Source: Clostridiaceae bacterium (GTDB lineage: Bacteria > Bacillota > Clostridia > Oscillospirales > Acutalibacteraceae). Taken from it: a stretch of 55,034 bases of DNA. This document shows positions 16,486 through 35,861 of this stretch, piece after piece. The stretch's first letter is position 1; each line of letters starts with the position of its first letter. The stretch spans positions 1-55,034 of the forward strand of contig JAEEUW010000001.1 in NCBI GenBank assembly GCA_016290665.1. Reading direction: 5' to 3'. A program made the translations under genes and the position numbers. The notes beneath the pieces were generated by a model, which saw only the letters and a program-made list of their open reading frames with translations, did no database searches and had not been told where the DNA came from.

Positions 16486-16509
16486 GGGTCGTTCCTCCTC
16501 AAATCAGCC

Positions 16510-17907: not shown

Positions 17908-17938
17908 AAGGAATCCCTCCCGGGACAAATGATTCTTG

Positions 17939-20011
17939 TTACAATGCAAGACCCGCCGCGCCGTCTTCCGGCTGGCCGCCGCCCGCAAACAGCGTGACGC
18001 CGCCGTCGGGCTGCGCGCGGCTGCCGTCGGGCAGCACCGCCTGCAGCCAGAAGCGGTCGACCGTCAGGGTGACGGTTTTAGTTTCACCCGGCTGCAAAAA
18101 GACCGACCCGAACGCGCACAGCTGGCAGTTCGGCGTTTTGGTGCGGCTGTCTTTCAGTTTCGCGTAGCATTGCACGACCTCGCGCCCGGCAAGCGCGCCG
18201 GTGTTGGTCACGGAGACGGAGATCGTGACGTCTTGTTCCGTTTGCCCGATCAGCGTCGGCGCGCCAAAGGCAAACGCGGTATAGCTCAGACCGTAGCCGA
18301 AGGGATAGAGCGGCTTTTCGCGCAGATAGCGGTAGGTACGCCCCTCCATGTCGTAGTTTTCCATCGGGGGCAAAGCGTTGTCTTCCCGATAGAACGTGAT
18401 CGGCAGCCGGCCGCTCGGGTTCGTTTTGCCGCAAAGCACGTTGGCAATCGCCAGACCGCCCAGCGCGCCGGGGTACCAGCCGTGGAGCACGGCCTTCGCC
18501 TTGGTTCGCACGGCTTCGCCGAGATCGGCGCAGGAGCCGCACAGCACCACGACCGCCACGTTTTCGCAAACGGCGCAGACCTGTTCGGCCAGCCGCATCT
18601 GACACGCGGGCAGATGCATCGTCTTGCGGTCGCCGCCCTCGGTGAAGGCGTTGTCAAAGCCGAGCTCCTCGCCCTCCACGGTGCGGTCGAGACCGAGGCA
18701 AAGAATTGTCAGGTCCGCCTCTTCGGCGGCGGCAAGGCCTTCGCTGGTCAGATCGGAAAACTCGCTCCAGCGGGAGCCGACGCCGTCGCAGACCGGCGAA
18801 CCGTCGGCCACGGTGACCGCGGCATTCGGGAACGCGCGGCGCACGCCGTCGGCAACGGTGACGTATTCGTCGGCGTGGCCGTTGTAGTTGCCCTCGAGCG
18901 ACAGCTCGTTCATGGCCGTCGGGCCGACCACGGCGATCCGCAGCGGTTGCGTCGGGTCCAGCGGCAAAAAGCCGTTCTTGTTTTCGAGCAAAACGACGGT
19001 CTCTTCGGCGGCGCGCAAGCTCAGCGCCTTGTGCTCTTTGCAGGAGACAACGGCATACGGCACGTCGGAAAACGGGCGCGCCGGTTCAAATTCGCCGAGC
19101 TTGGCGCGGATCGTGAACAGGCGCTCGGCGGCCGCCGTAATTTCTTCGTCGGTGACGAGATCTTCCTCATACGCGTCGATCAGCGCCTCATAGGCGCCGC
19201 CGCAGTTGAGCTCGCAGCCGGCTTTCAGCGCCATGGCCGCCGCTTCGGTCAGCGTGGCGGCACTGTGGTGGCCGTGACAGATATCGGCAATCGCGCCGCA
19301 GTCGGAAACGAAGTAGCCCGCAAAGCCCCATTGTCGGCGCAGAATCTCCATCAGCGCCCCGCTGGCGCAGCAGGGCTCGCCGTTGGTGCGGTTATAGGCG
19401 CCCATCACGCCGGCAACCCCCGCTTCCACCGCCTTTTGAAACGCGGGGAGATAGGTCTCGTGCAGATCCTTCTGCGACACCACGGCGTCAAAGCCGTGGC
19501 GCTTGCGTTCGGGGCCGGAATGCGCCGCAAAATGCTTGGCGCAGGCGGCCGCTTTGAAAAAGGCGCCGTCGCCCTGCAGGCCGGCAATATAGGCGCAGGC
19601 AATCTGCGACGTCAGAAACGGGTCTTCGCCGCAGGTCTCCTGCCCGCGGCCCCAGCGCGGGTCGCGGAAGATGTTGATATTCGGCGCCCAGTAGGTCAGG
19701 CCCTTATAGATGCCGCGGTCGCCGTGCAGGACGCTTTTGTTATATTTGGCGCGGCCCTCTTGCGCAATCGCCGCGGCGACCTCGCCCGTCAGCGCGGGGT
19801 CGAAGCTCGCCGCCATGCCGATCGACTGCGGAAACACGGTTGCAACCCCGGCGCGCGCCACGCCGTGGCACGCCTCGTTCCACCAGTTATAGGCATGAAT
19901 CCCCAACCGTTCGATGGCAGGCGATTCAAACAAAAGCTGCGACATTTTTTCTTCTGCCGTCATCTGCGAGACCAGCCGCCGCGCCGTTTGGCGCGCTTTT
20001 TCCAGTTCCAT
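17939..20011 (-). CDS. GH3 beta-glucosidase/beta-xylosidase-like glycoside hydrolase
   Basis: 690 aa. The N-terminus LFESPAIERLGIHAYNWWNEACHGV is typical of GH3 xylosidase/glucosidase enzymes. Nucleophile region GFAGYFVSDCGA. Confidence 0.88.
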   Translation of the reverse strand: MELEKARQTARRLVSQMTAEEKMSQLLFESPAIERLGIHAYNWWNEACHGVARAGVATVFPQSIGMAASFDPALTGEVAAAIAQEGRAKYNKSVLHGDRGIYKGLTYWAPNINIFRDPRWGRGQETCGEDPFLTSQIACAYIAGLQGDGAFFKAAACAKHFAAHSGPERKRHGFDAVVSQKDLHETYLPAFQKAVEAGVAGVMGAYNRTNGEPCCASGALMEILRRQWGFAGYFVSDCGAIADICHGHHSAATLTEAAAMALKAGCELNCGGAYEALIDAYEEDLVTDEEITAAAERLFTIRAKLGEFEPARPFSDVPYAVVSCKEHKALSLRAAEETVVLLENKNGFLPLDPTQPLRIAVVGPTAMNELSLEGNYNGHADEYVTVADGVRRAFPNAAVTVADGSPVCDGVGSRWSEFSDLTSEGLAAAEEADLTILCLGLDRTVEGEELGFDNAFTEGGDRKTMHLPACQMRLAEQVCAVCENVAVVVLCGSCADLGEAVRTKAKAVLHGWYPGALGGLAIANVLCGKTNPSGRLPITFYREDNALPPMENYDMEGRTYRYLREKPLYPFGYGLSYTAFAFGAPTLIGQTEQDVTISVSVTNTGALAGREVVQCYAKLKDSRTKTPNCQLCAFGSVFLQPGETKTVTLTVDRFWLQAVLPDGSRAQPDGGVTLFAGGGQPEDGAAGLAL

Positions 20012-20044
20012 GAGCGCCTCCTGTGGTTCGGTGTTTCGTCTGCT

Positions 20045-20827
20045 TCAGGCAGACGGAAGCTCAACTTCCACCAGCACGGGGAAATGATCGGACGGATACA
20101 GACCGCCGGGGTACGCGTCGCGCAGCACGCGGTAGGAGCGCACCTGCACGTCGCCCTTCACGAAGCAGTAATCGATGATTGCGGGGGGCTCGTCGTATTT
20201 GTCCGTGACAAACACTTCACAGTGGAAAGTGGCGCCGTCGTCGCTGACCGGCGCAAGCAGCCGCGCATCCCGGAACCCGCCCGCAATCACGGCGCGGTAG
20301 GGCGCGGAATCCGGCGTCACGTTGAAATCGCCGGTGAAGAACGCGGGCAGATCCGGGCAGATCTCCTCCGCCTTTTCGGCAACCAGCTCGGCGCCCTTCT
20401 GCATGGCGACGACGCCTCTGTGATCCAGATGCGTGTTGAAATGCACGAACTGTCTGCCGGCGTCGGTTTCCTGCAGCCTGGCATAGGAGCAGATCCGCAC
20501 ACAGGCGGCGTCCCAGCCCTTCACGCCGGGCACGTCCGGCGTTTCGCTGAGCCAGAAGGAGCCGGCATCCAGCAGCGCAAACTTTTCTTTTTTATAAAAC
20601 ACGGCGGAGAATTCGCCTTCCGTTTTGCCGTCGTTCCGTCCGACGCCGACGTAGGCATAGTCGGGCAGGCCGGCGCAAAGCGCTTTGATCCAGTCATAAT
20701 GCGCCTCCTGCACGCCCAGCGTGTCCGGGTCGGCTTTGCGGATCGTGTCCAGCACCAGCTCCGTGCGGCACGGCCAGTCGCGGCCGTCCTTGCCGCCGCA
20801 AAGCAGATTGAAGCTCATGATTTTCAT
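20045..20827 (-). CDS. Endonuclease/exonuclease/phosphatase (EEP) family protein
   Basis: ORF 20045..20845 trimmed to ATG 20827 (AAGGGAG 8 nt upstream; the upstream ATG forms an ATGA overlap with the GH38 stop). Motifs MSFNLL, LGVQEA and PSDHFPV. Confidence 0.8.
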   Translation of the reverse strand: MKIMSFNLLCGGKDGRDWPCRTELVLDTIRKADPDTLGVQEAHYDWIKALCAGLPDYAYVGVGRNDGKTEGEFSAVFYKKEKFALLDAGSFWLSETPDVPGVKGWDAACVRICSYARLQETDAGRQFVHFNTHLDHRGVVAMQKGAELVAEKAEEICPDLPAFFTGDFNVTPDSAPYRAVIAGGFRDARLLAPVSDDGATFHCEVFVTDKYDEPPAIIDYCFVKGDVQVRSYRVLRDAYPGGLYPSDHFPVLVEVELPSA

Positions 20828-20841
20828 GGCCGTTTCTCCCT

Positions 20842-23800
20842 TCATCTGACAAGTTTGATGGTTTTGATCTCAAACGGGCGGAAGAACAGCGTGAGCTTGC
20901 CGCCGTCCGCCGGCAGTTCTCCCTGCACGTCCTCCAGCAGATTGGTCAGCTGCGCTTTTTTGATCGGCGCCGACAGCGTCAGGTCGGTGCGGGTTTTGCT
21001 GCCCTCGCATTCATACAGGCGCAGCACCACGGCGCCGCTGTCGTCTTCGGCGGGCTTCACCGCCTCCACGATCACGTTCGGCGCGCCGACGGCAGCGAAC
21101 GGCGGAAGGTTTGCCGCCCCCTTTGCGTCGGCAACGGGCACGTTCAGCAGATAGGCGGGCTGCACCACCGTTTCGGCCGAAAAGTCGCCGGCGTGCGGCA
21201 GCAGCGCATAGGTCATTTCATGCAGCCCCCTGTCGCCCGTAAAGTCCGGGTGGGTACCGCCGCGGTGGAGCGACAGACGCAGGTTGCAGTCCAGCACACA
21301 GATGCCGTATTTGCAGTCGTTGAGCACGGCGACGCCGAAGCGCGGCTCGCTGATATCGGTGAAGTTGCGGTTGCAGACTTCGAATTTTGCATATTCCAGA
21401 CTGTTGTTGGCGGTCGTCGGGCGTTCGATGGAGCCGAACTGGATCTCGCTTCTGGCGCGGGTGGCCGCAACGTCCAGATCGAAGCCGACCTTCAGCAGGC
21501 GGTGCGGGCTGTTCCAGTTCACCAGCGTGTGGAAATCGATGCGCGGCGAGTCGGCGTAGCAGACCAGATCCTGCGTCACGGTCGTGCCGTTTTCGATTTC
21601 GAACGTGCTGCGCAGACGGATCTCGACCGCGCCGTCGGTCACAACGCTTCTGCCGCAAAAACCCTGCACGGGCTGCAGCTTCTCGATCACGTCGCGCTCC
21701 ACGTCCCAGTTGTCCCAGGCAAGGGGCACATCTTCGCCGAACAGCAGCACGCCCAGCGGCGCGCCGCCCTTTTTGCGCAGCTCGCGGCCGGAGGCTTTGT
21801 CAAGCAGGGACGCGATGTAGCCGTTTTCGTCAAAGGTCAGCGTGGCGAACGGCGTTTCCAGCCTCGTGCCGTCATAGGAAAACGGCGAGGGCGCGTCCAG
21901 CGGCCGATCGCTCATGCGAAGCACGGCGGAGCCGAAGCCGGGCAGCTTCACGCCGCCGACGGCCAGCTTTTCTTTGCCGCACAGGTCAATATAACGCTGC
22001 GAGGGATAGTCGGCCGCAAAGCCCGCCGCGTTCAGCACGGCGACGTCGCCGCGTGGGAAGGACAGCGTGTTGAACAGCGTCACGCTGTCGCTGCCGTCGG
22101 TCAGCTTTTCGGCGTAGGCGGCCGCCGCGTCGGCGTAGCTTTGCAGCAGGTCGTCCATCTCGGTCCGGTAGACGTCATAGACCGGCTGGATGCAGGTGCC
22201 GGGCAGGATGTCGTGGAACTGGTTTTTGAGCAGCGTCTTCAGCCAGCGGTCGCTGTTTTCGTTGCGCTTTTGGCCGGAAAGAACGTTGAAATATTCCATG
22301 TTGCGCAGAGCGTATTCCGCCTTGCGGTTTTTGCGCTTCACGTCGTGCATCTGGGTCAGCGTGCCGCGGTGCAGCTCCAGATAGAGCTCGTCGTCATAGA
22401 CCGGCAGATCGTCCTTCTGCGCCTCCAGCTCTTTGCCGAAATCGCTGATCGTCATCGATTCGATCTCGGGCAGGCCTTCCGTTTCGGAGGCGCGCAGCGA
22501 GGTTTCGATCATGCCCGGGGTCGGGCCGCCGCCGCCGTCGCCGAAGCCGTAGGCCAGAAGGCGCAGGTCGGAGGCATCCTTGAGCTGCAGGTCGCGCGTG
22601 GCGGCGCTGCAGTCGTTGACGTCGGGCCAGCAGTGGGTGCGGTTGAAGTGGGTGATTACCTCGCTGCCGTCAAGTCCCTTCCAGACGAAGCTTTCATAAG
22701 GGAACCGGTTCAGCTCGTTCCAGCCGATCTTGGTCGTGTAGAAGTATTTGACCTCGCTCTGACGCATAATCTGCGGAATGTTGGCGTTGTAGCCGAAGGT
22801 ATCGGGGAGCCAGAAGCTGTCGGCCGTGTAGCCGAAGTTTTCGCGCGTGAACTGCTGCCCCTTCAGGAACTGGCGCGCCATCAGCTCGCCCGAGGTGATG
22901 TTGCAGTCGCATTCCACGTAAACGCCGCCGTTCGGCTCATAGCGGCCCTCGGCCACACGTTTTTTCATCTCCGCAAAGATGGCGGGATAGTATTCCTTCA
23001 TCCATTCGCCGTGCAGCGCGGAGGACTGAATGAACTTATAGCTCGGATACTGCTCCATCAGGTGCAGCGCGTTGGCGTAGGTGCGCGCACATTTGCGGAT
23101 CGTTTCCGACACGGGCCAGAGCCAGGCGGTGTCCATGTGGCTGTGGCCGATGATGCCCACACGGCCGAACACGCGGCTGTTGCCGCCGCGGAAAAACGGG
23201 CGCGAAATCGCAAGCGCCTTGCGCACGCCCTCGGCCACGGCCGCTTCGGAGGCGTCCTTCGGATAGAGCGGCAGCACGTCGTTGATCTGTCGCAGCGCTT
23301 TTTTGGCGCGGGCGGAAGCAAAGCTGTCCTGCGGCAGCCGGCGCGCGGCGTTCAGCAGCTCGCGCAGGTCGAAGATCAGCGTGAACACTTCTTCGTCACG
23401 GGTGCAGATCTGCACGCCGTCAAAGCTGTGGCGGAAGGTCTGCGACGTGTCCGGCGCAAAATAGTCGTCGTAGGGATCGGTGTTGGGATCGTAATGGCCG
23501 GCGTAGCATTCAAACGCAAGCGCCAGCGTTTCTCCCGCTTTCGGCTTGCCGAGGTACTGCGCCGCATGGTGACCGCCGATAAAGTCGCGGTTTTTTGTGT
23601 TATAGATACCCTTGGGCACGCTGTTCAGGAAGAACAGCTGCTCATTGCCGCCGCAGGCCGACACCGCATAGAGCGCTTTGCCGTCCAGCGCGTCGGGCAC
23701 CGTGAACGTGCCCCTGAGCCACATGTTGTTCCATTCGCCGCCCCAGGACGTGCCGGGCGCAATCGGGGCAAAGCCGGCTTCCGGCACCGCGCGCAGGTGC

Positions 23801-23931
23801 TCTTCGGTGAACAGCGCCTGCGGGTTCTGCAGCTCGCCGACCTTCCGATACACCAGTTGTTCATAGATCTTCAGCGCGTGGCCGAGCTTTTCATAGATGC
23901 GATTGTTCAGGTTCTCGTTATACATAATCAC
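20842..23931 (-). CDS. GH38 alpha-mannosidase
   Basis: 1029 aa with the GH38 signature IIGHSHMDTAWLWP. Size and domain order match cytosolic bacterial GH38 enzymes. Start is GTG 23931 or ATG 23925. Confidence 0.9.
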   Translation of the reverse strand: MIMYNENLNNRIYEKLGHALKIYEQLVYRKVGELQNPQALFTEEHLRAVPEAGFAPIAPGTSWGGEWNNMWLRGTFTVPDALDGKALYAVSACGGNEQLFFLNSVPKGIYNTKNRDFIGGHHAAQYLGKPKAGETLALAFECYAGHYDPNTDPYDDYFAPDTSQTFRHSFDGVQICTRDEEVFTLIFDLRELLNAARRLPQDSFASARAKKALRQINDVLPLYPKDASEAAVAEGVRKALAISRPFFRGGNSRVFGRVGIIGHSHMDTAWLWPVSETIRKCARTYANALHLMEQYPSYKFIQSSALHGEWMKEYYPAIFAEMKKRVAEGRYEPNGGVYVECDCNITSGELMARQFLKGQQFTRENFGYTADSFWLPDTFGYNANIPQIMRQSEVKYFYTTKIGWNELNRFPYESFVWKGLDGSEVITHFNRTHCWPDVNDCSAATRDLQLKDASDLRLLAYGFGDGGGGPTPGMIETSLRASETEGLPEIESMTISDFGKELEAQKDDLPVYDDELYLELHRGTLTQMHDVKRKNRKAEYALRNMEYFNVLSGQKRNENSDRWLKTLLKNQFHDILPGTCIQPVYDVYRTEMDDLLQSYADAAAAYAEKLTDGSDSVTLFNTLSFPRGDVAVLNAAGFAADYPSQRYIDLCGKEKLAVGGVKLPGFGSAVLRMSDRPLDAPSPFSYDGTRLETPFATLTFDENGYIASLLDKASGRELRKKGGAPLGVLLFGEDVPLAWDNWDVERDVIEKLQPVQGFCGRSVVTDGAVEIRLRSTFEIENGTTVTQDLVCYADSPRIDFHTLVNWNSPHRLLKVGFDLDVAATRARSEIQFGSIERPTTANNSLEYAKFEVCNRNFTDISEPRFGVAVLNDCKYGICVLDCNLRLSLHRGGTHPDFTGDRGLHEMTYALLPHAGDFSAETVVQPAYLLNVPVADAKGAANLPPFAAVGAPNVIVEAVKPAEDDSGAVVLRLYECEGSKTRTDLTLSAPIKKAQLTNLLEDVQGELPADGGKLTLFFRPFEIKTIKLVR

Positions 23932-23941
23932 TCGCCCTCCG

Positions 23942-24991
23942 TCAAGCCTTGTTTTCGGGTTGCGGATTCACCACGGTCAGGATGTCCTTGTTCGAAACGA
24001 TGAACGTAATTCGCTCTTCGATGGAGGGACCGCCGTGGCTGCCGCCGATGCCGCCGTGATCGGTGGTGATCAGGATCAGCCAGTCTTCGCTGTCATAGGT
24101 CGGACGTTCCGTGATTGTTTCGATGATGTCGGCGCCGGTCGCCTCCGCGTCGCGGAAGGCGCTGATATATTTCGGATTCCCCAGGCCGAAGCCACTGCCA
24201 TGACCGGCATGATCGGTATATTCCAGCGTGGAGAAGATGAAGTCGGAGCAGTCTTTCTTTCTCAGGTCGGACAGAATGTTGAATTTCGTACCCGGATCAA
24301 AGAGTGCGCGGCGATAGGTCGCGTTGACGCCGTTTTCGCGCGCATAGACCTTTTCGGGATAATAGGTCGCGTCCTTTTTGCTGAAATGACCGTCCCAAGA
24401 AACGTAAAACGCGCTCTTGTCCACCGTGCCGTCTTCCACCAGCGAAAGCAGCAGCGTCTTAGGCTCCACTTCCTTCGGTTGGCCGTTGTTGTTGATGTGA
24501 TGCACATCGGCCCAGGCGCCGGTCAGCATGGAGCACCAGCCGGGCGCGGTCGAGGTGGCCTGGGTGTTTTCCGCGGGGAAGTTGACGCCGCCCGCAAAGC
24601 TGAAGACCGCGTGTCCGCCGTCGGAAAGCAGCATGTTGATGGCGCTCTTCTTTGCCGTTGCGAGCAGACGGAACGTGTCGACCTGACAGCCGTCATAGCC
24701 GATCACGATGGCTTTCTTTTCGGTCTTGCCCTCCGGCAGCGGCGAAGCAAAGTGCGCTTTGATCAGATCATAGACCGCGGTCTGCGGCAGCGCCTCCTGC
24801 CAGGTGTTTTCCAAAACCGGCAGCGTTTCCAACGACTGTTGGTAATCCTCCGCGGCAAGGACGGCGTCGTCGCCTTCCGCGAGCCACTTGCTGGGATGAT
24901 ACGTCAGGTTATACCAGACGTAGCCGCCGATGAGTCCGCCGATGAGCAGAACGACGAGAACGGGAATCAGGATCTTTGCTGCTTTCTTCAT
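23942..24991 (-). CDS. Membrane-anchored alkaline-phosphatase-superfamily phosphodiesterase (ENPP-like)
   Basis: ORF 23942..25006 trimmed to ATG 24991 (GGGAGG 7 nt upstream). N-terminal anchor ILIPVLVVLLIGGLIGG. Motifs VIGYDGCQ, TSTAPGWCSMLTG, YTDHAGHGSG and ITTDHGG. Confidence 0.75.
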   Translation of the reverse strand: MKKAAKILIPVLVVLLIGGLIGGYVWYNLTYHPSKWLAEGDDAVLAAEDYQQSLETLPVLENTWQEALPQTAVYDLIKAHFASPLPEGKTEKKAIVIGYDGCQVDTFRLLATAKKSAINMLLSDGGHAVFSFAGGVNFPAENTQATSTAPGWCSMLTGAWADVHHINNNGQPKEVEPKTLLLSLVEDGTVDKSAFYVSWDGHFSKKDATYYPEKVYARENGVNATYRRALFDPGTKFNILSDLRKKDCSDFIFSTLEYTDHAGHGSGFGLGNPKYISAFRDAEATGADIIETITERPTYDSEDWLILITTDHGGIGGSHGGPSIEERITFIVSNKDILTVVNPQPENKA

Positions 24992-25036: not shown

Positions 25037-25073
25037 ATAATATCACGAGGTGTCCAACAAATGTCCAACAAAA
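25037..25073 (-). promoter_or_regulatory. Extended -10 promoter with 23-bp tandem direct-repeat operator (copy 1)
   Basis: Minus strand reads TTTTGTTGGACATTTGTTGGACA (25073->25051), then 8 nt, then TGaTATTAT (25045->25037). It lies 45 nt upstream of ATG 24991. The 23-mer is identical to 33711->33689. Confidence 0.7.
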
Positions 25074-25116: not shown

Positions 25117-25155
25117 ACAAAAAGAGCACCCGCCGGGGCGGGTGCGTTCCTTTTT
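25117..25155. terminator. Bidirectional intrinsic terminator ending the upstream minus-strand transcription unit
   Basis: Hairpin GCACCCGC-CGGG-GCGGGTGC (25126..25145) with an A-run on the left and GTTCCTTTTTG on the right, just downstream of the stop at 25164. Confidence 0.7.
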
Positions 25156-25163
25156 GTCGGTCC

Positions 25164-25646
25164 TCAGTCTTTCACAAAGATCATGTCGACCAGGTTTTCC
25201 TGTTCATACTCGTCCTGCCACATCAGCTGGTTGGCCGATACGAACTGGATGCGGCCGTAGCCGTCTTCATATTCCGTCTTGCTTTCGGTCTCGTTGCCGC
25301 TTTCGTCAAAGACGGTCAGCGTCTTCACGCCGTTCGTGTAGTTCACGCGCCAGGTGTCGGCGTCATACACGCCGGACATCGTCCAGTCGTAGAACTCAAG
25401 CGCGGAGCTGCCCCAGTGGACGGAAATCTTCACTTCGTTGTTCTCGCCGGTCTCCACCGTAATGTTGCAGCGGCCGCAGACATAGTTGCCGGCAATCTCT
25501 TCGAACGTGACAGGCGTCGCTTCGGAGACGGTGTGTTCTTCGCTGTCCGGTTTCCCGGCGGGCGTTTCGGTTTTGCCGCAGGCCGCAAACAGCGCCAGGC
25601 AGAGCACGCAGGCAAGCAGCAAAGAGACGGCTTTTTTCATGTTCAT
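25164..25646 (-). CDS. Small lipoprotein of unknown function
   Basis: ORF 25164..25871 trimmed to ATG 25646 (GGGAGG SD). Signal peptide with lipobox (LALFAAC-GK). Confidence 0.65.
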   Translation of the reverse strand: MNMKKAVSLLLACVLCLALFAACGKTETPAGKPDSEEHTVSEATPVTFEEIAGNYVCGRCNITVETGENNEVKISVHWGSSALEFYDWTMSGVYDADTWRVNYTNGVKTLTVFDESGNETESKTEYEDGYGRIQFVSANQLMWQDEYEQENLVDMIFVKD

Positions 25647-25720
25647 AAGAATACCTCCCAAAGGAATTTGATGTAGAAAGAGCAACAGCTCTTTTTTACG
25701 GTAAGGATGCGGCAAAATGC

Positions 25721-27220
25721 TCAGGAAATCAGAGCGCTGATGATCGCGCCGAGATTGGAGAACAAAAGCGAGAACACGACCAGCAACAGCAGCAGCACCG
25801 CGTGCAGCTTGCGGCTGCGGACCAGCAGACCCACGTATTCGCGGATCTGCGCGTTCGGCCAGAAATACCATTTGGTTTTGCTCGCAATCCCGTCCGCGTG
25901 CAGACCGGCGTCGTTGGCCAGAATGCCGCTGCGGAACACGTGGTAGTTGGTGGTGGAAAAGATTACGCTTGCGTCCGGCTTGCGTTCGTCAATCAGCGCC
26001 TTGGAGCATTTCATGTTCTCCTGCGTGTTGGCAGACTGCGTTTCGGCAAGGACGTCCGTTTCCGGAATCCCCAGCGAAAGCAGATAGCGCCGCACGGCCT
26101 CCCCTTCGGCCATCACCTCGTCGCTCCCCTGCCCGCCGGAGGGCACCAGCACGGGCGCCTTGCCCGTGGCCTCCTTCTGCCGCCGATAGAACGCGGCTGC
26201 CCGGTCTGCGCGGCCCTTGAGAAGCGGATAGAGCGTGCCGTCCTTTCTGATCGCGCAGCCGAGAATCAGCACGTAATCATGCGTCAGGGGCGGCTTGCGC
26301 CGCGCGGCGATCACGCAGCAATACTGCGTTGCAAACAGCATGGCAAGGAAATACAGGAACAGTGCGGAAAACACCGTCCGGACGACCGAGATCCAGAGCG
26401 CGTTCGGCTCAAAGCTCAGCATCTGCGTGTTGACAAAGGCCAGCACAACCGCCGCCAGCACGCCGCCCATCATCAGCGCGGCCAGAATCAGCGCAAGCAG
26501 GTTGGTTCTGCGCAGACCCTCGTGCCGGATCAGCCAGACGTTGCTGACCGCCATGACCACCGAGAGCAGCAGAATGAACGGCAGCGAGAGCATCACCACC
26601 GCAGTCAGGGCATACTGCGCGGCAAAGAACAGAATTCTGCCGAGCGCCTCGCCCGGATTCACCAAACAGAACACCACCAGCCCGAAAAAGACGGCGCCGT
26701 GGAGCAGAAAGAACAGACTCAGGCCGAAATTCAGCACGGTATCGTAGGAAAAGAAGGTTTCGCGCTTTCTGCGCCGATACATCAAAAACAGATAGACGCC
26801 CGCAAACAGAAAGAATGCCGCCAAAGCGCCGCACAGGATATAGAACCCATTGAAATCCAGATCGGCCGGTTCCAGTATCGTGCCGAACCGGGTCACGTAA
26901 AGGAAGGAATAATGCCTGTCTTTGAGTGTGCCGTAATCTTCGCTTGTGTGCGGAAACACAGCTGCCACTTCGGTTCCGCCGGGCTGCTTTGCCCGAAAGG
27001 TGACGGCCCAGACCTCGTCCTTCTTTTCCACCGAGATCATTTCCACAACATCGGGATTCCCGATTTCGGCCGTCACGTTCTGATAGCCGTCCTTGCTCTC
27101 GGGCATATAGATGCTGTAGGTCCGCGCGGAGAACAGCAGCAGCACAAATGTGACGGCGCCGATACAGACGCCCGCAAGGGCGATCACAAGCAGATTCTTT
27201 TTCAGGTCTGTTCGCTTCAT
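25721..27220 (-). CDS. Polytopic membrane protein with C-terminal DUF218 (YdcF/ElyC-like) domain
   Basis: 499 aa with multiple hydrophobic helices. The DUF218 pattern follows (LILGCAIRKDG...VPSGGQG...TQSANTQENM...STTNYHVFRS). Confidence 0.75.
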   Translation of the reverse strand: MKRTDLKKNLLVIALAGVCIGAVTFVLLLFSARTYSIYMPESKDGYQNVTAEIGNPDVVEMISVEKKDEVWAVTFRAKQPGGTEVAAVFPHTSEDYGTLKDRHYSFLYVTRFGTILEPADLDFNGFYILCGALAAFFLFAGVYLFLMYRRRKRETFFSYDTVLNFGLSLFFLLHGAVFFGLVVFCLVNPGEALGRILFFAAQYALTAVVMLSLPFILLLSVVMAVSNVWLIRHEGLRRTNLLALILAALMMGGVLAAVVLAFVNTQMLSFEPNALWISVVRTVFSALFLYFLAMLFATQYCCVIAARRKPPLTHDYVLILGCAIRKDGTLYPLLKGRADRAAAFYRRQKEATGKAPVLVPSGGQGSDEVMAEGEAVRRYLLSLGIPETDVLAETQSANTQENMKCSKALIDERKPDASVIFSTTNYHVFRSGILANDAGLHADGIASKTKWYFWPNAQIREYVGLLVRSRKLHAVLLLLLVVFSLLFSNLGAIISALIS

Positions 27221-27315
27221 GGGGGCGGTCTCTCCTCAGATTGGTCTGGTTCTGCAGATAAGCGTGACACAGCCGGAGCTGTGCTGCAGCCCCGGCACCG
27301 CATGTTTTGGTTTGT

Positions 27316-28026
27316 TCAGGAAGCGGATTTGGCAAGATATTCTTCCAGCGTCAGTCCGTTATCCATGATCTCTTCGGCGATCGCCGGGCTGTCGATATAG
27401 CGGAAGTGCCACGGCTCATAGGCATAGCCGGTAACGGCGTCCTTGCCTTCGGGGAAGCGCAGGATGAAGCCGTAATCGGCAAGCCGCTTGTGGATCTCGG
27501 CAAAGATTTCTTTTTCGGCGATCATCCGGTCATTGTCGTTGATGATCACGCCGTCCTTGATGATGCAGACGTCGATCGCAAGCGCGGTGTGGTGCTCGGA
27601 ATAGCCGGGCACGGCAACATACTTCTGCGTATAGTCAAGGCCGTATTCTTCCTCGAACTCCTTCCAGAGCTCCTCCTGACGCGCCACCGAACGGTAGGTG
27701 CTGTCGAGCAGGATCACGATGCCGTCCTTTTCCAAGTCCGCCTGCAGCGCGCGGAACGCCTGCAGCGCTTTCTTTTCTACCTTGAACACGTCGGTCGACA
27801 GATAGTCATTGCTTTCGTCCAGCGCCACGCCGTCCGGAACGGTGTTCTGCGCGTCTTCCAGCTCGATCACGGCTTCCCAGTTGTCGGGCAGCTTGTTTTC
27901 TTTGTTGACCAGTACGAGATAGTCATACTTCGGCGCTTCCGGCTGTTTGTCGCAGGCGGCCAGCACGCCGCAAAGACACACGGCGAACAGCAGCAGCGCC
28001 AGTGCGCGTTTCATTTGGATCTTCAC
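27316..28026 (-). CDS. VanY-like D-alanyl-D-alanine carboxypeptidase (peptidase M15B), lipoprotein
   Basis: ORF 27316..28080 trimmed to GTG 28026 (AAGGAGG 7 nt upstream). Lipobox VLAAC. Zn motifs SEHHTALAIDV and YEPWHFRY. Confidence 0.8.
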   Translation of the reverse strand: MKIQMKRALALLLFAVCLCGVLAACDKQPEAPKYDYLVLVNKENKLPDNWEAVIELEDAQNTVPDGVALDESNDYLSTDVFKVEKKALQAFRALQADLEKDGIVILLDSTYRSVARQEELWKEFEEEYGLDYTQKYVAVPGYSEHHTALAIDVCIIKDGVIINDNDRMIAEKEIFAEIHKRLADYGFILRFPEGKDAVTGYAYEPWHFRYIDSPAIAEEIMDNGLTLEEYLAKSAS

Positions 28027-28054
28027 GGAACAGCCTCCTTTGTTTTTTGTGCGT

Positions 28055-29113
28055 TCAGCGTTCTTCATCAAACGCAACAACTGTGTCGGTTGCTGCCGAT
28101 TCGAAGATCGCTTCGATCAGCTTGAGGCACCGGCGCATCTGGCGGTGGGTCACCGTCTGCGCCGCGCCGTTGCGGATCACGTCATAGATATTGTCATAAT
28201 AGGCCGTCCATTCGCCATGCACCTTTTCCAGCGGGGCGTCGTGGATGGTCTCGTCCGTGCGGGGCGCCATGGTCTTGGTGATGCCCATGCCCGCCTTGAT
28301 CGGCACGGCGTCGATCTTGTCCCAGTTGTGCACCAGCGTCATTTTGCCGGAAAGATCCCAGTCTTCGATCACGGCGGTGCCGTTTTCGCCGAGGATGTAC
28401 CAGCGCGGCAGGGAGATGAAGTTGTTCGTGGTCACTTCCACGTAATAGCTCAGCCCGTTTTCAAACCGCAGCTCACAATAGAATCCGTCGTCGCATTCGT
28501 CGTTGGTGATCTGCGTGATCTGGGCCCAGACGCTTTTGAGCTTCACGCCGTCGTTCATCGTCAGCGCCTGATCGAGCAGATGGACGCCCCAGTCAAGCAC
28601 CATGCCGCCGCCGTGGATCTTCTCTCTGCGCCAGTCGCCGGGAATTCCGCGGGAGCCCTGCACGCGCGATTCGATGCGGAACACCTTGCCCAGCAGGTTC
28701 TTGTCGGCAATGTTCCGCATGGTCAGATAGTCTTCGTCCCAGCGGCGGTTCTGGTGCACGGTGAAGAGCCTGCCCGTCTCTTTCGATACGGCAATCATCT
28801 CGTCGAGCTCCCGAAGGTTCATGGCCACCGGCTTTTCCGAAATCACGTTTTTGCCCGCCCGCATTGCTTCGATGCAAAGCGGCTTATGCACATCGTTCCA
28901 GGTGGCGACCACCACCAGCTCCACGCTGTCGTCCGCCAGCAGATCTGCAAACGAGGTGTAGGTGTGAATGCCGCAGTTTCTTGCGTTCACAAGCTGATCG
29001 GGGTTGATATCCCACACGCCGGTCAGCTCAAATTTTTCCATTTCGGCAATGCGTTCGGTGTGCCAGCCGCCCATGCCGCCGTAACCGACAACGGCCACTT
29101 TGATCGGTTTCAT
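28055..29113 (-). CDS. Gfo/Idh/MocA-family NAD(P)-dependent oxidoreductase
   Basis: 352 aa. N-terminal Rossmann segment KVAVVGYGGMGGWH and the family-typical EKP motif (ISEKPVA). Confidence 0.88.
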   Translation of the reverse strand: MKPIKVAVVGYGGMGGWHTERIAEMEKFELTGVWDINPDQLVNARNCGIHTYTSFADLLADDSVELVVVATWNDVHKPLCIEAMRAGKNVISEKPVAMNLRELDEMIAVSKETGRLFTVHQNRRWDEDYLTMRNIADKNLLGKVFRIESRVQGSRGIPGDWRREKIHGGGMVLDWGVHLLDQALTMNDGVKLKSVWAQITQITNDECDDGFYCELRFENGLSYYVEVTTNNFISLPRWYILGENGTAVIEDWDLSGKMTLVHNWDKIDAVPIKAGMGITKTMAPRTDETIHDAPLEKVHGEWTAYYDNIYDVIRNGAAQTVTHRQMRRCLKLIEAIFESAATDTVVAFDEER

Positions 29114-29138
29114 CTGTTTTGCCTCACTTTGCTCTGAA

Positions 29139-30104
29139 TCAGACCCACCACATGCTGCCGGGCTGCTCGCCCATGATGCAGCGCTTGAGCATGGAGACGG
29201 CCCGTTCCAGACCCTCCCGCTGGCTCATGATGGAGTCTTCGTGTTCAATCGAGATCGCGTGGTCATAGCCGACCATGCGCAGGTTGCTGATGATCTCTTT
29301 CCAATAAAGCTCGTCGTGGCCGTAGCCGACCGCGCGGAAGACCCACGAGCGGTGAATCTCGTCGCCGTAGGGCTTGTTGTCGAGCACGCCGTTGACGGCG
29401 GTGTTGTATTTGTCCACCTTGGTGTCCTTGGCGTGGAAATGGAAGATCACGTCGCCCAGCGCGCGGATGACCGCCACGGGCTCCATGCCCTGCCAGATCA
29501 GATGGCTCGGGTCAAGGTTGGCGCCCAGCGCGGGGCCGATCTCCCTGCGGATGCGCAGCATGGATTCGGTGTTGTAGACGCAGAAGCCGGGATGCAGCTC
29601 AAAGCCGATCTTGTCTACGCCGTGGTCCGCCGCGAACTGCACGAAATCGGACCAATAGGGCAGCAGCACATCGTTCCACTGATAGTTCAGAATATCGCCG
29701 AACTCGTTGGGCCACGGACAGGTGACCCAGTTCGGGTTCTCCGAATTCGGGCAGTCGCCCGGGCAGCCGGAAAAGGTGTTGATCTGGTGCACGCCGAGCT
29801 TTTCGGCAAGCAATATCGCCTGCTTCATCTCATCATCGAACCGCTTTGCAACGTCCTTGTTCGGATGCACGGGGTTGCCGTGGCAGCTGATGGCGCTGAT
29901 GCCGACGTTGTATTTCGCAATCAGGTCCCTGAACTTCTGCAGCTCGGTCTCGCTGTGCAGCAGAACGGCGGGGTCCGCGTGCTGTTTGCCGGGGTAGCCG
30001 CCCGCGCCGATCTCCACCATCTCGATGCCGAGCGAGGTGAAATAGTCGAGCGCCTTTTCCAGCGGCCAGCTGCCGAGCATGTTTGTCAATACGCCGAGTT
30101 TCAT
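29139..30104 (-). CDS. Xylose-isomerase-like TIM-barrel protein (sugar phosphate isomerase/epimerase family), paralogue 1
   Basis: ORF 29139..30125 trimmed to ATG 30104 (AAGGAG 8 nt upstream). AP_endonuc_2-type patterns (EIGAGGYPG, FELHPG, FHAKD, SIEHED). Confidence 0.85.
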   Translation of the reverse strand: MKLGVLTNMLGSWPLEKALDYFTSLGIEMVEIGAGGYPGKQHADPAVLLHSETELQKFRDLIAKYNVGISAISCHGNPVHPNKDVAKRFDDEMKQAILLAEKLGVHQINTFSGCPGDCPNSENPNWVTCPWPNEFGDILNYQWNDVLLPYWSDFVQFAADHGVDKIGFELHPGFCVYNTESMLRIRREIGPALGANLDPSHLIWQGMEPVAVIRALGDVIFHFHAKDTKVDKYNTAVNGVLDNKPYGDEIHRSWVFRAVGYGHDELYWKEIISNLRMVGYDHAISIEHEDSIMSQREGLERAVSMLKRCIMGEQPGSMWWV

Positions 30105-30117
30105 GATTGTTTCTCCT

Positions 30118-30852
30118 TTATCCAAAGTGCTTTTTCAAATACGCCATGCTTCTTGTCACGTCCGAGATGCCGTCCGGCACCGGGTCGTCGTTTTCCACAA
30201 TGACCCACTCCATGCCGATCTTTTCGGCCGCGTCCAGAATGGCGGCAATGTCGTTTTCCCCTTCCCCGATGGCGCACGGGGTGCCGTCCACGCCGTCTTT
30301 CAGGTGGATCAGGCAGATGCGGTCTTTGTTTTCACGCAAAAAGGTTTTGTTGTCCACGCCCGCGCGAAAGCTCCAGTAGGTGTCGATTTCCAGCCACATC
30401 CGTTCGCCGAGCCGTTCCAGAATCGTTCTGTCGTCCGCGCTGTCTTCCGGCGGCTGAAACTCGCCGGTGTGATTGTGGAAATAGACCTTGACGCCCTGCG
30501 GTTCAAACGCGTCGTTTGCGCCGCCGAGGATCTCGATCACACGGCAAAGATCCTGTTCCGTGCCGGTGGGCCCGCCGCCGACGCCGACGCAGGCGCAGCC
30601 GAGCGTTTGATAAAACGCCAGCGTTTTGTCTCTGTTTTCCGGGGTGAAATCATCCACGCCCAGATGGGTGCCGACACAGACGAGGCCGAGTTCGTCAAGC
30701 TTTGCTTTGATCGTTTCCGCAGGAAGACCCTGGGTCCCCGCGAATTCCACGCCCTCATAGCCGGCCTGCTTCACGTGTTCCAGCGCTTTGAGCAGATCGT
30801 CGCCGTTGTCAATGCCGTCACGCACGGAATACATCTGTACCGCGAATTTCAC
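30118..30852 (-). CDS. Xylose-isomerase-like TIM-barrel protein, paralogue 2
   Basis: 244 aa. N-terminus MKFAVQMYSVRD... followed by GYEGVEFAG, YFHNHTGEF and HLKDG. Confidence 0.85.
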   Translation of the reverse strand: MKFAVQMYSVRDGIDNGDDLLKALEHVKQAGYEGVEFAGTQGLPAETIKAKLDELGLVCVGTHLGVDDFTPENRDKTLAFYQTLGCACVGVGGGPTGTEQDLCRVIEILGGANDAFEPQGVKVYFHNHTGEFQPPEDSADDRTILERLGERMWLEIDTYWSFRAGVDNKTFLRENKDRICLIHLKDGVDGTPCAIGEGENDIAAILDAAEKIGMEWVIVENDDPVPDGISDVTRSMAYLKKHFG

Positions 30853-30866
30853 GCCGCATCACTCCT

Positions 30867-31676
30867 TTACATGATGGCTTTCAGATAATCGACGCTTTCT
30901 TTGATGCACTGCATCGGCGTCTTGCCCTTGCTCGGGCTGTCGATCTCAACGATGCCCCATTCGGTGCCGGATTCTTCGGCAGCCCTGACAAGCGCGGGAA
31001 TATTCTGCAGACCCTGGCCGAGCGGACGGAATTCAAAGTCGCCGACCGTCTCTTCCTTTTGGCCGTCGTTCACGCCGATCAGGGCATACATGTTCTCGCT
31101 CTTTTTGCCCGCAAAATCCTTGAAGTGGATAATGTCCACGCGGCCCGCGTATTTGCGGATGTATTCCACGGGGTCCGCGCCGCCGACGTTGACCCAGCAG
31201 GTGTCGAGCTCGGCCAGCAGCAGATCGGCCGGAATGGTCTCATAGATCACGTCGAGCGCATATTTTCCGTCGATCTTTTCAAATTCAAAATCATGGTTGT
31301 GATACGCCAGACGCATGCCGTTCTTTTTGGCAAAGGCGCCGAGGATCGCCGCGTCGCCGATCATCTTTTCAAAGCCCGGCTTACCCGGACGGTCGCTTTC
31401 GCCGAGCCACGGGATGGCCACAAATTTGCAGCCGATGGCGGCATAGGATTCCAGCACGAACGGGTTGTCGCGCATCTCGTCGAGCGGCACGTGCGCCGAA
31501 ACGGGCACAAGGCCGTATTTGCCGCAAAGCGCCTTCACCTCTTCGGCCGATTTGCCGAACAGGCCGGCGAACTCCACGCCTTCATAGCCCATGGCGGCCA
31601 CTTCTTTGAGCGTGCCTTCAAAATCTTTTTCCATTTCGTCGCGAACGGAATAAAGCTGTACACCGATTTTCATCAT
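30867..31676 (-). CDS. Xylose-isomerase-like TIM-barrel protein, paralogue 3
   Basis: ORF 30867..31682; start among three in-frame ATGs (31676 preferred, AAGGA SD). Contains KIGVQLYSVRD, GYEGVEFAG, AYHNHDFEF and HFKD. Closest in pattern to paralogue 2. Confidence 0.85.
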   Translation of the reverse strand: MMKIGVQLYSVRDEMEKDFEGTLKEVAAMGYEGVEFAGLFGKSAEEVKALCGKYGLVPVSAHVPLDEMRDNPFVLESYAAIGCKFVAIPWLGESDRPGKPGFEKMIGDAAILGAFAKKNGMRLAYHNHDFEFEKIDGKYALDVIYETIPADLLLAELDTCWVNVGGADPVEYIRKYAGRVDIIHFKDFAGKKSENMYALIGVNDGQKEETVGDFEFRPLGQGLQNIPALVRAAEESGTEWGIVEIDSPSKGKTPMQCIKESVDYLKAIM

Positions 31677-31678
31677 GA

Positions 31679-32479
31679 TCATCCTTTATAAAGCAGTTTG
31701 GAAATATAGTCGATGGTGAAATCCACGCCCCAGTCGCCCATGGCGCCTTTCCAGGTGTCCGAATGCGGTTCAATGGAGAGCATGCCGTCGTAGCCGACTG
31801 CATAGAGCAGGCCGAGCACGGCGTTCCAGTTTGTGCCGTCCAGCCCGGCGGGCGGGTCGTCCACGTGTTCGCCGGCAACGTTCAGCGTGCCCTTGACGTG
31901 GAAGTGGAAGATTTTGCTGCCGAATTCCCGGATCTCCGCCAGGCAGTCGCCGTGGTGGACGTTGATGCAGTGCGAGGGGTCAAATTTGATTCCGAGCCCC
32001 GGCACGGCCTCCAGCACGATGCGCCAGACGGACGGCTCCCGGATCCAGTTGTTCCAGTCGCAGTTATAGACCGCAACCTTCACGCCCTTCGTTTCGCCGT
32101 AGGCCACCGCTTCACGCAGGAACCGCACGGCGGCGTTGAGGTTGTCGAGATAGGTCAGCTCCCGCACATAGTTGACGCCGGTGTTGAACACGGGCGCGCC
32201 GAGCGCGGCGGCAATGTCGATCAGGCGTCGGGTGTTGCAGCGTCCCTCTTCCAGCAGTTCCCCGTCGGGGCCGACCTTGTCTTCGCCCCAGCGGCCGAGC
32301 GCGCCGAGGTGCAGATCATGGTCTGCATAAACCCTTTTCAGTTCCGGAATGCGCGCCTCCAGCAGATCGAGATCCGCGCCGACGTTGTAGCAGTATTCGA
32401 GATAGTGCAGACCCTTGCCGGCAGCCCATTCTGCGCTTTGAACGTCGGGGTCCGCAATGATGCCGAGTTTCATCGTCAT
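31679..32479 (-). CDS. Xylose-isomerase-like TIM-barrel protein, paralogue 4
   Basis: 266 aa with TIM-barrel patterns (VAVYNCDWNNW, KFDPSH, FHFHVKG, SIEPHSD). Confidence 0.85.
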   Translation of the reverse strand: MTMKLGIIADPDVQSAEWAAGKGLHYLEYCYNVGADLDLLEARIPELKRVYADHDLHLGALGRWGEDKVGPDGELLEEGRCNTRRLIDIAAALGAPVFNTGVNYVRELTYLDNLNAAVRFLREAVAYGETKGVKVAVYNCDWNNWIREPSVWRIVLEAVPGLGIKFDPSHCINVHHGDCLAEIREFGSKIFHFHVKGTLNVAGEHVDDPPAGLDGTNWNAVLGLLYAVGYDGMLSIEPHSDTWKGAMGDWGVDFTIDYISKLLYKG

Positions 32480-32488
32480 AGTCTTACC

Positions 32489-33801: not shown

Positions 33802-33843
33802 CAAAAAAACGGCCCGACGTCTGCCGGGCACAGACGTCAAGCC
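33802..33843 (-). terminator. Intrinsic terminator of the glnA-ANTAR operon
   Basis: Minus strand reads CGGCTTGACGTCTG-tgcccgg-CAGACGTCGGGCCG followed by TTTTTTT, about 95 nt after the stop at 33939. Confidence 0.8.
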
Positions 33844-33938
33844 GTTTTGCGCAGCTCTTGCAAAGCCGCCTTTTCATTATAATATAGTCCGCTCTTTTTC
33901 GGGGGGCGGTTCGGGGCGCCAGAGCGGGTTTTGCGCGG

Positions 33939-34520
33939 TTACCCCTGTTCCACAATCTCCTGCGCGACCGCGCGGCGGGTCACGCAGCGGTCCATCGCCT
34001 GCTTTTCGATATAGCGGTGCGCCTGCGGCTCGTCCATCCCGCGGTGCTCGATCAAAATCCACTTGGCGCGGTTGACCAGACGGATTTCCTCCATCTTCTC
34101 CTGCAGGGTGAGCGTCTTTTTTTCGGTTTTGCGCAGCCGTTCGCGGGCGGTCGCCATCCACTGCAGCGCCGTTGCCATCCGCCCCGCGGAGGTCGGCTTC
34201 AAAAGCGTGAATACGCCGTAGGGCGTCAGCCGTTCGGTCACTTCCGCATAGAACGCCTCGCGCAGCAGCAAAAGCGCAACCGTCTCGTTGCCGCCGCAGA
34301 CGTCCACGGCAAAGCGCAGGCCCATGTCGTCGGGCAGCGGCGCGTTGATGATGACGAAATCAAAGGCGTGTTCGGCAACCGCGCGCTTAGCGGTGCTCAC
34401 ATCGCCCACCACGCGCACCGGGTCGTAGCCGGAGGAAGGCAGAAGCGGCAGCAGCGCGGCGTTGAACTGTTCCGCCGCGGAGACGACAAGAACACTGTAG
34501 ACGCGTTCCTTCAGATCCAT
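33939..34520 (-). CDS. ANTAR-domain RNA-binding antiterminator with degenerate (pseudo-)receiver domain
   Basis: 193 aa. C-terminal ANTAR pattern RAKWILIEHRGMDEPQAHRYIEKQAMDRCVTRRAVAQEIV. N-terminal CheY-like fold lacks the acidic pocket (VVSAAE) and has Asn where the phospho-acceptor Asp is expected (DFVIINAPLPDD). Confidence 0.85.
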   Translation of the reverse strand: MDLKERVYSVLVVSAAEQFNAALLPLLPSSGYDPVRVVGDVSTAKRAVAEHAFDFVIINAPLPDDMGLRFAVDVCGGNETVALLLLREAFYAEVTERLTPYGVFTLLKPTSAGRMATALQWMATARERLRKTEKKTLTLQEKMEEIRLVNRAKWILIEHRGMDEPQAHRYIEKQAMDRCVTRRAVAQEIVEQG

Positions 34521-34559
34521 ATCTGCTTCCTCCTTCCTTTTGTTTCGGACTTCCCCGGG

Positions 34560-35771: not shown

Positions 35772-35790
35772 AGGAAGCACCTCCTGATTG

Positions 35791-35855: not shown

Positions 35856-35861
35856 GATTTT

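Follow-up and report, generated by a model that had tools for sequence, protein, structure and literature searches.

The 55,034-bp contig JAEEUW010000001.1 (assembly GCA_016290665.1) of a Clostridiaceae bacterium carries two copies of a 23-bp tandem repeat, TTTTGTTGGACATTTGTTGGACA, in the promoter regions of two operons. The whole contig, which comes from a metagenome-assembled genome (MAG) of an uncultured rumen bacterium and has a G+C content of about 60%, is referred to here as the window. The 23-mer is a real regulatory site, neither a chance recurrence nor a generic repeat. It is probably a class II activator box resembling those of the SARP regulators of actinobacteria, and the protein that reads it would be a conserved two-component response regulator, a homologue of which recurs beside the same box in gut Clostridia.

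Two identical promoter boxes in the window

Both copies of the 23-mer are read on the minus strand, box 1 at the head of operon A and box 2 at the head of operon B (Table 1). The sequence consists of a T followed by two tandem copies of TTTGTTGGACA with an exact period of 11 bp; expressed otherwise, the heptamer TTGGACA is repeated in both boxes with the 4-nt spacer TTTG between. A first-pass annotation of this DNA, made from the sequence alone, had described the identical 23-mer on one strand at these two places and its composition of two 11-mers 11 bp apart, and both descriptions were verified when the sequence was re-read, the second of them exactly. Across the 55-kb window the exact 11-mer TTTGTTGGACA is present at four positions only, all of them in the two boxes. 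With up to two mismatches there are 13 matches in the window against 10.8 expected from shuffled sequences, which is no excess, and a search for two units with up to four mismatches returned no third box there. By our own arithmetic, the chance that a given 23-mer recurs in 110 kb of two-strand sequence is about 1e-9. Repeat finding in the window grouped the two sites as a pair of 38 nt with 84% identity (family D12). Beyond the box and the -10 region, the upstream regions of the two sites are unrelated, and the earlier statement that the flanks have nothing in common was thus confirmed by comparison. No Rfam family reached its gathering score in the 55 kb, and no riboswitch, T-box, tRNA or small RNA was recognised there; an RNA element as an explanation of the 23-mer was rejected for lack of such a match in the window.

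Each box is followed by an extended -10 element, in the context CCTCG-TGa-TATTAT at site 1 and ATCTG-TGc-TATGAT at site 2. The first-pass annotation had placed a gap of 8 nt between the repeat and this element; the distance holds to the -10 hexamer at both sites and does not hold to the TG, which is only 5 nt from the repeat. The start codon given for the first gene of operon A, 24991, was borne out and lies 46 nt from the hexamer, and at site 2 the start codon is at 33643, 32 nt from the hexamer. A promoter scan gave no TTGACA-like hexamer 16-18 bp 5' of the -10 hexamer at either window site; on the box strand its only match was a shifted TGGACA-17-GATATT, at site 1, and site 2 had none. Relative to the predicted start, the box spans about -42 to -21 and overlaps the -35 region. 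Both boxes stand at the heads of transcription units, since an intrinsic terminator is located just 5' of each.

Table 1. Positions of the boxes, promoter elements, terminators and genes in the window, and of a second type of regulator gene in other loci (those with a locus prefix)
Feature	Position	Strand	Remarks
Box 1	25073->25051	minus	leading T and two tandem TTTGTTGGACA (25072->25062, 25061->25051)
Box 2	33711->33689	minus	identical 23-mer; repeats 33710->33700, 33699->33689
Extended -10, TGaTATTAT	25045->25037	minus	hexamer TATTAT 25042->25037, 8 nt 3' of box 1
Extended -10, TGcTATGAT	33683->33675	minus	hexamer TATGAT 33680->33675, 8 nt 3' of box 2
Intrinsic terminator	25126..25145	minus	ends operon B, isolates box-1 promoter
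Long terminator hairpin, 19 pairs	33806..33848	minus	after ANTAR regulator gene, isolates box-2 promoter
Operon A, tightly packed part	15472..24991	minus	headed by box 1
Membrane-anchored phosphodiesterase	23942-24991	minus	operon A
GH38 alpha-mannosidase	20842-23931	minus	operon A
EEP phosphatase	20045-20845	minus	operon A
GH3	17939-20011	minus	operon A
Metallophosphoesterase	16510-17988	minus	operon A
Second phosphodiesterase	15472-16485	minus	operon A
Operon B	25164..33643	minus	headed by box 2
Gfo/Idh/MocA oxidoreductase	32489-33643	minus	operon B
Four xylose-isomerase-like TIM-barrel proteins	29139-32479	minus	operon B
Second oxidoreductase	28055-29113	minus	operon B
VanY carboxypeptidase	27316-28080	minus	operon B
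DUF218 membrane protein	25721-27220	minus	operon B
Last ORF of operon B (open reading frame), 235 aa	25164-25871	minus	no Pfam match
ANTAR response regulator	33939-34520		directly upstream of site 2, adjoins glnA
Second regulator paralogue type	L055:704-1504, L013:3731-4519, L120:6603-7391, L005:4315-5124, L135:8146-8949		

Conservation of the box in gut Clostridia

Exact matches to the 18-mer core of the box, TTGGACATTTGTTGGACA, were sought in 185,579 species-representative (GTDB) genomes. The scan gave at least 120 loci, where about 17 would be expected by chance (own arithmetic), and all counts of loci and sites below are among the matches listed. Gut Clostridia account for 104 loci, almost all of them from ruminant MAGs or isolates; the groups represented are Butyrivibrio, other Lachnospiraceae, Ruminococcaceae/Oscillospiraceae and unclassified Clostridia. 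Blautia, Solobacterium and a MAG labelled Coriobacteriaceae appear with a single locus each.

The promoter geometry of the window recurs in these genomes. A TAnnnT hexamer is found exactly 8 nt 3' of the last repeat at 96 of 117 sites in gut Clostridia, compared with a background of 1.2%, and at none of the 16 sites outside this group. The consensus after the box in gut Clostridia is N5-TG-N-TATAAT, the TG extension being present at 44 of the 96 sites that have the -10 at +8. At 81 of these 96 sites, an ORF of 70 aa or more that has a Shine-Dalgarno-like sequence follows within 350 nt. The possibility, raised in the first-pass annotation, that the motif is scattered through genomes regardless of promoters is not borne out by this fixed position of the -10. 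The four bases 5' of the first heptamer, which were not in the query, are T, T, T and G at 78, 74, 91 and 98% of sites, respectively; because bases beyond the query are conserved too, the conserved unit is the whole 11-mer. Near-variants of the box exist (TGCTGGACA, TTGGACG, TTGGACT/TTGGGCA and TGTCGGACA), so its invariance is high but not absolute.

In promoters with three or four repeat units, it is the 3'-most unit that keeps the 8-nt distance to the -10. One and the same kinase promoter has two units in some strains (L127, L128), three in another (L125) and four in a further one (L126), all around 4532-4573; these differences are a repeat-length polymorphism inside a regulatory site. Sites with three to five units in L013, L102 and L137 likewise have their 3'-most unit 8 nt from the -10.

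Orthologous operons retain the box. In L068 (RGIG3704) the box precedes genes for the phosphodiesterase (61% identity), GH38 (80%) and GH3 (81%) and thus heads an orthologue of operon A, while in L011 (RUG13829) it precedes an oxidoreductase gene (86%) followed by TIM-barrel and oxidoreductase genes (73–90%), an orthologue of operon B. L015 has orthologues of operon B and then a box with a metallophosphoesterase gene. The box at these three loci is identical to that of the window and the flanks have diverged. Loss of the motif upstream of orthologous operons had been named beforehand as an outcome that would speak against a regulatory role; in the other species represented by L068 and L011 it is kept.

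These observations bear on the idea that the box is a dispersed selfish or structural repeat, such as a repetitive extragenic palindrome (REP) or miniature inverted-repeat transposable element (MITE) or the end of a mobile element, that lies near promoters by accident. In Proteobacteria the 18-mer does occur beside tRNA-Glu genes, perhaps there as the end of a mobile element, and there are a few matches in viral contigs. Similarity between copies, however, stops at the box and the -10; neither terminal inverted repeats nor flanking homology were seen; the geometry is fixed at the gut sites and absent from the 16 others; the box outlasts the divergence of its flanks at orthologous operons; and only six viral contigs matched, none of them with the promoter geometry. 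A selfish or structural origin is therefore extremely unlikely, and on these grounds a REP/MITE-like repeat and a phage element were both rejected.

Genes associated with the box

Gene linkage was searched in all ORFs of the listed loci (8 kb each) with one example per family as query. Among the 81 first downstream genes there are 8 for response regulators, 4 for STAS anti-sigma-antagonist-like proteins, 4 for DUF3592 proteins, 3 for metallophosphoesterases and 2 each for VanY, GH43 and PF06580 histidine kinases. One specific response regulator of about 267 aa has a homologue in 31 of the 104 gut loci, and a six-transmembrane PF06580 (LytS-type) kinase is encoded in about 25 or more loci. A STAS protein and a PP2C (SpoIIE-type) phosphatase were each found in about 10 loci, and at least one of the kinase, regulator, STAS and PP2C genes is present in 50 of 104. 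The box is usually situated directly upstream of the kinase-regulator pair, between the two genes, or upstream of a STAS/PP2C gene. No pst or pho gene and no other family of DNA-binding protein recurring beside the box was found among the 81 downstream genes.

The association was also approached from the opposite side. Eight loci were picked by similarity of the regulator protein alone and then inspected for the box, which, in its usual form or as a close variant, was found beside the kinase-regulator cluster in seven. The loci belong to Oscillospiraceae, Lachnospiraceae, an entry labelled Eubacter… by NCBI, B. proteoclasticus and others. No sigma factor gene was seen in the gene clusters of these regulator-first loci.

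STAS and PP2C/SpoIIE genes recur directly 3' of boxes (e.g. L121:8091-8829; L133:9007-11229), and the phosphatase of L133 and L134 carries a dCache sensor domain. Their recurrence points to a partner-switching module that is connected with the two-component system.

By a rough heuristic based on N termini, 43 of the 81 first downstream genes encode proteins with an exported or membrane-anchored look, as against 6 of 37 genes in the window, one of which is probably spurious. The regulon may thus be biased towards cell-surface and secreted functions. Several first downstream genes (loci L001-L120) encode proteins of 1,400-1,700 aa.

The candidate regulator

The regulator consists, according to Pfam, of a Response_reg domain and a weakly scoring Trans_reg_C winged helix. 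In the alignment of the family, receiver positions D8/D9, D54, T82 and K102 are invariant; we take these to be the phosphorylation residues. The protein fits no NCBIfam equivalog; in its receiver domain it comes nearest to BtsR and LytR. Sequences from different bacterial families are 55–60% identical, and the regulator family comprises more than 2,300 clusters at 90% identity (E ≤ 1e-40). JGI and NCBI label such proteins 'SAPR family', with REC, wHTH and BTAD domains (COG3947 category). The segment YDRxMQKQxDVIIRSLR is almost invariant and is taken to be the recognition helix; its near-invariance parallels that of the box.

The full-length AlphaFold model (predicted local distance difference test, pLDDT, 84) matches regulators of the OmpR/PhoB family in Foldseek, namely DrrB, RpaA, PrrA and PhoP. 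The model of the C-terminal 143 aa (pLDDT 86) has a winged helix and three further helices, which are formed by about 45 extra C-terminal residues. Among PDB entries this model is best matched by the SARP domain of AfsR in a transcription activation complex (8hvr, 8k60) and by EmbR (2ff4, 2fez), with alignments that span 137–164 columns, compared with about 85 for plain OmpR-type domains. At the sequence level a BTAD was rejected; Pfam gave Trans_reg_C only, and sequence searches of the PDB gave OmpR-type domains only. Because Pfam detects no BTAD and three helices follow the winged helix in the model, the C-terminal domain would be at most a truncated SARP domain.

A response regulator had been named in the first-pass annotation among the possible cognate factors. 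The candidate described here, with its OmpR-type winged helix and the box at its own locus, is predicted to be such a factor.

A 428-aa variant of the regulator (P0015, P0019; L143:2673-3959) has one receiver and two complete DNA-binding modules in tandem, each a winged helix with a short helical tail. It fits a single-chain version of the presumed dimer and the reading of a tandem repeat; its own 6-kb contig (L143) showed no box. A second paralogue type (Table 1) differs in its presumed recognition helix (EDRALKKQLRVFLSSLR). Its gene lies 3' of a canonical box in L055, L013 and L120, in the latter two after a receiver-only gene, which suggests a regulatory cascade with a second motif.

Another DNA-binding protein might read the box, and the kinase, regulator, STAS and PP2C genes would then be merely its commonest targets. 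Linkage is association only, in about half of the listed loci no regulator gene lies within 8 kb and none is present in the window, and the second paralogue type, with its different presumed recognition helix, is also found 3' of boxes. On the other side, no other DNA-binding family recurs among the 81 downstream genes, sampling by the regulator first finds the box in seven of eight loci, and the near-invariant YDRxMQKQxDVIIRSLR runs parallel to a near-invariant box. Moreover, proteins of the regulator's fold class are known to recognise tandem direct repeats spaced by one helical turn, and the two tandem DNA-binding modules of the 428-aa variant mirror the tandem repeat. We regard a different binder as rather unlikely.

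Comparison with known direct-repeat systems

In SARP promoters the direct repeats are spaced by 11 or 22 bp and the 3' repeat is 8 bp from the -10; in the 22-bp afs box, two 11-bp repeats overlap the -35 (PMC10936776, PMC10972967). SARPs bind as a side-by-side pair of protomers that contacts sigma region 4 and the core of the polymerase, and they are described as exclusive to, or mainly found in, actinobacteria (PMC10936776, PMC10972967). The clostridial sites agree with this architecture. The period of 11 bp is found at both window sites and at the 104 gut loci, the distance of 8 bp from the 3' repeat to the -10 at both window sites and at 96 of 117 gut sites, and the position of the box over a poor or absent -35 at both window sites. 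Similar to the sites of ActII-ORF4, DnrI and the AfsR of Streptomyces coelicolor (the afs box), the clostridial sites have heptamer repeats with 4-nt spacers and at least two units, and in both groups the number of repeats varies between sites. Further, the candidate has an OmpR-type winged helix, and in the predicted structure the helices after it superpose on the start of the BTA domain in AfsR and EmbR.

There are also clear differences. The hosts here are Clostridia, and the regulator carries a fused receiver at its N terminus and has a histidine kinase as its partner. Of the seven BTA helices, about three only are present in the clostridial regulator, and Pfam does not detect a BTAD in it. 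The heptamer is TTGGACA rather than TCGAGCC or CGTTCAT, and the -10 is a consensus extended -10, whereas the -10 of SARP promoters is weak. SARPs act on antibiotic clusters, in contrast to the clostridial box, whose targets are signalling genes, exported proteins and glycan and sugar catabolism. Regulators annotated as COG3947 'SAPR family' share the annotation category of the candidate, but the BTA region is truncated in the latter.

PhoB of E. coli and PhoP of B. subtilis (repeats of TT(A/T/C)ACA) resemble the candidate in combining a receiver with a winged helix. At their sites, as at the box, tandem direct repeats of 11-bp period take the place of the -35, and activation at the box would likewise proceed via polymerase contact; autoregulation of the two-component operon is common. 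The candidate and its box show features of an OmpR/PhoB-family class II system, namely a receiver with Trans_reg_C and a box tied to the regulator gene in 31 of 104 listed loci and in seven of eight loci when sampled in reverse. It differs in its kinase, which is LytS-type (PF06580) and not PhoR-type, and in the extra C-terminal residues. The pho box lies 10 bp from the -10, not 8. A Pho box was rejected; NCBIfam PhoB scores are far below cutoff, the kinase is of the PF06580 type, and no pst or pho genes are found downstream.

Three other known sites were considered and rejected. PF06580 kinases usually pair with LytTR or AraC-type outputs. LytTR regulators such as AgrA, ComE and LytR/BtsR also act at direct repeats, and the receiver of the candidate is closest to that of BtsR/LytR; LytTR sites consist of 9-bp repeats separated by about 12 bp, with a period of about 21 bp. 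The regulator has no LytTR domain and the period of the box is 11 bp, not about 21 bp, and a LytTR site was rejected on these two counts. The Spo0A 0A box (TGTCGAA) was rejected because TTGGACA differs from TTCGACA, its reverse strand, and there is no match to Spo0A_C; the Spo0A equivalog score of the regulator is far below the NCBIfam cutoff. A sigma-54 promoter, with GG and GC elements at -24/-12 (TGGCAC-N5-TTGC), was rejected since the spacing is one base short, the bases differ and a sigma-A extended -10 follows.

Proposed mode of action

In the mechanism that we favour, the box would be a 22-bp site of two 11-bp direct repeats within a sigma-A-type promoter that has an extended -10 and no usable -35. 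The partner kinase, a LytS-type histidine kinase (PF06580) that spans the membrane several times, would phosphorylate the regulator. A regulator dimer would then bind with one protomer per repeat, head-to-tail and on the same face of the helix, and the phosphorylated protein, occupying roughly -42 to -21, would recruit RNA polymerase in place of a -35 contact, in the manner of SARP activators at the promoters of actinobacteria. The core of the regulon would be the regulator's own locus (kinase, regulator, STAS and PP2C), operons A and B would be distal members, and a regulon of this kind, with its almost invariant box, would be common to many ruminant-gut Clostridia. The data show the sequence of the box, its geometry in the promoter, its conservation between species and at orthologous operons, its two-way linkage to the regulator locus and the fold class of the regulator; binding of the box by this regulator, activation as opposed to repression, and the positions of the transcription starts are inferred. 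The suggestion in the first-pass annotation of a factor that binds direct repeats at the -35 of an extended -10 promoter is supported by the geometry of the -10, by the ORFs downstream and by the orthologous operons. The rigid distance of 8 bp between box and -10 suggests a stereospecific contact with RNA polymerase, because it is kept at 96 of 117 sites even as the number of repeats changes.

The same rigidity bears on whether the conserved regulator represses instead, by occluding the -35 and spacer of a self-sufficient extended -10 promoter, or acts both ways according to context. Extended -10 promoters can function without a -35, the -10 elements are near consensus and 44 of the 96 have the TG extension, and the box covers the region that sigma region 4 would occupy. 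However, a repressor needs only to overlap the promoter, and the 8-bp distance persists across repeat numbers; no -35-like hexamer was found 16-18 bp 5' of the -10 hexamer; SARP activators have promoters of the same geometry; and two-component systems commonly activate their own operons. Repression or dual action by the conserved regulator is unlikely.

Very unlikely, in our view, is a reading of the repeat by RNA polymerase itself, whether as an unusual -35 or upstream element or as an alternative sigma promoter under STAS/PP2C partner switching. TGGACA agrees with TTGACA at 5 of 6 positions, but it is 19 bp from the -10. The STAS and PP2C genes that recur beside the box give this reading some weight, as such proteins classically act upstream of alternative sigma factors. 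Nevertheless, the -10 is a textbook sigma-A extended -10, none of the linked clusters showed a sigma factor gene, and the spacing does not fit sigma-54. Variation from 2 to 4 units between strains, with only the 3' unit in register, would be unexpected for a single contact by sigma region 4.

Several points weigh against activation by the conserved regulator as set out above. The window contig encodes neither the regulator nor the kinase, as judged by homology search, and in the reverse test one regulator-variant locus, on a 6-kb contig, is without the box. Part of the apparent invariance of the box comes from querying with an exact 18-mer, and the scan that gave at least 120 loci provides lower bounds and speaks to neither the size of the regulon per genome nor habitat restriction. 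The extended -10 is strong, so the promoters may fire without an activator, and a protein at -42 to -21 could repress. Finally, the structural matches to SARPs are modest (E 5e-5 to 8e-4, template-modelling score about 0.6) and only slightly ahead of OmpR-type domains, and Pfam, searched to E 10, detected Trans_reg_C and no BTAD in the regulator. As for the first of these points, the window's own genome is predicted to encode the regulator elsewhere; MAGs of similar composition, RUG12588 (L006, L040, L097) and RUG11941 (L084), have it, which is only indirect for the genome of the window.

A wider interpretation is that SARP-type activation extends beyond actinobacteria, in the form of a receiver-fused mini-SARP with a LytS-type kinase, coupled to a STAS/PP2C partner switch and governing a large regulon through a single nearly invariant box of 22 bp, as a regulatory code of the rumen community. 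Each genome would often have several paralogous mini-SARP/kinase pairs, and the regulon would consist of exported proteins and glycan-degrading enzymes. The regulon, whose box is present in several families (Lachnospiraceae, Oscillospiraceae and others), might answer to a shared environmental or interspecies signal and might have spread by horizontal transfer. This interpretation is speculative, and we hold it to be doubtful as a whole.

Implications

A literature search with the motif and its reverse complement found only unrelated primers, and searches on SARPs in Firmicutes and on Butyrivibrio regulons found no paper on the motif, regulon or function of the clostridial SAPR/COG3947 family. 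For this regulator family, a candidate site on DNA, the architecture of the promoters and an initial regulon are now predicted. The hosts are central to fibre digestion in ruminants and have almost no experimentally defined regulons. If the assignment is true, the SARP promoter rule and a SARP-like fold extend to Firmicutes, and in the window the phosphoesterase/glycosidase operon and the oxidoreductase/TIM-barrel operon are under common control. The near-invariant box can be searched directly in rumen genomes and metagenomes to list co-regulated genes, and it could serve as a portable inducible promoter part for Clostridia.

Genes around the boxes in the window

The tightly packed part of operon A is followed, after a gap of 306 nt, by six further enzyme genes in the same orientation; they extend to 6105 and may be part of the operon. 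In operon B, the last ORF and the end of the DUF218 gene overlap, with 150 nt read in two different frames. Either the ORF in truth begins further 3', or a frameshift is present.

The first-pass annotation had stated that no regulator gene adjoins either box. This does not hold literally, as the ANTAR regulator gene adjoins site 2; its product is not a plausible DNA-binding partner. The ANTAR regulator is an RNA-binding antiterminator and hence implausible for a DNA direct repeat; it is paired with glnA and does not recur near boxes elsewhere, and it was rejected as the partner of the box. The ANTAR regulator and glutamine synthetase genes (33939-36095) end in an unusually long terminator with a 19-pair stem (33806-33848). 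The two genes are a nitrogen-control antiterminator unit unrelated to the box.

Related repeats in other genomes

In L014, around 4357-4380, a tandem direct repeat with an 11-bp period and a related heptamer, TTTTCGGACAATTTTCGGACAA, begins about 45 nt 5' of the canonical box. A Parcubacteria MAG (L027:5684-5760) has palindrome arrays built from the same word (TGTTGGACATCGGATGTCCAACA), a different and unrelated repeat. In MAGs of Alpha- and Gammaproteobacteria (L056, L059, L095, L104, L108, L119), the 18-mer has a tRNA-Glu(CTC) gene or a 3' fragment of a tRNA at a distance of about 40 nt, as in L108, with the 18-mer at 624-641 and tRNA-Glu at 679-754. These copies are always preceded by ATA and none has the -10 geometry. 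The tRNA-linked 18-mer appears to be a conserved, unrelated element, which may be one end of an integrative element.

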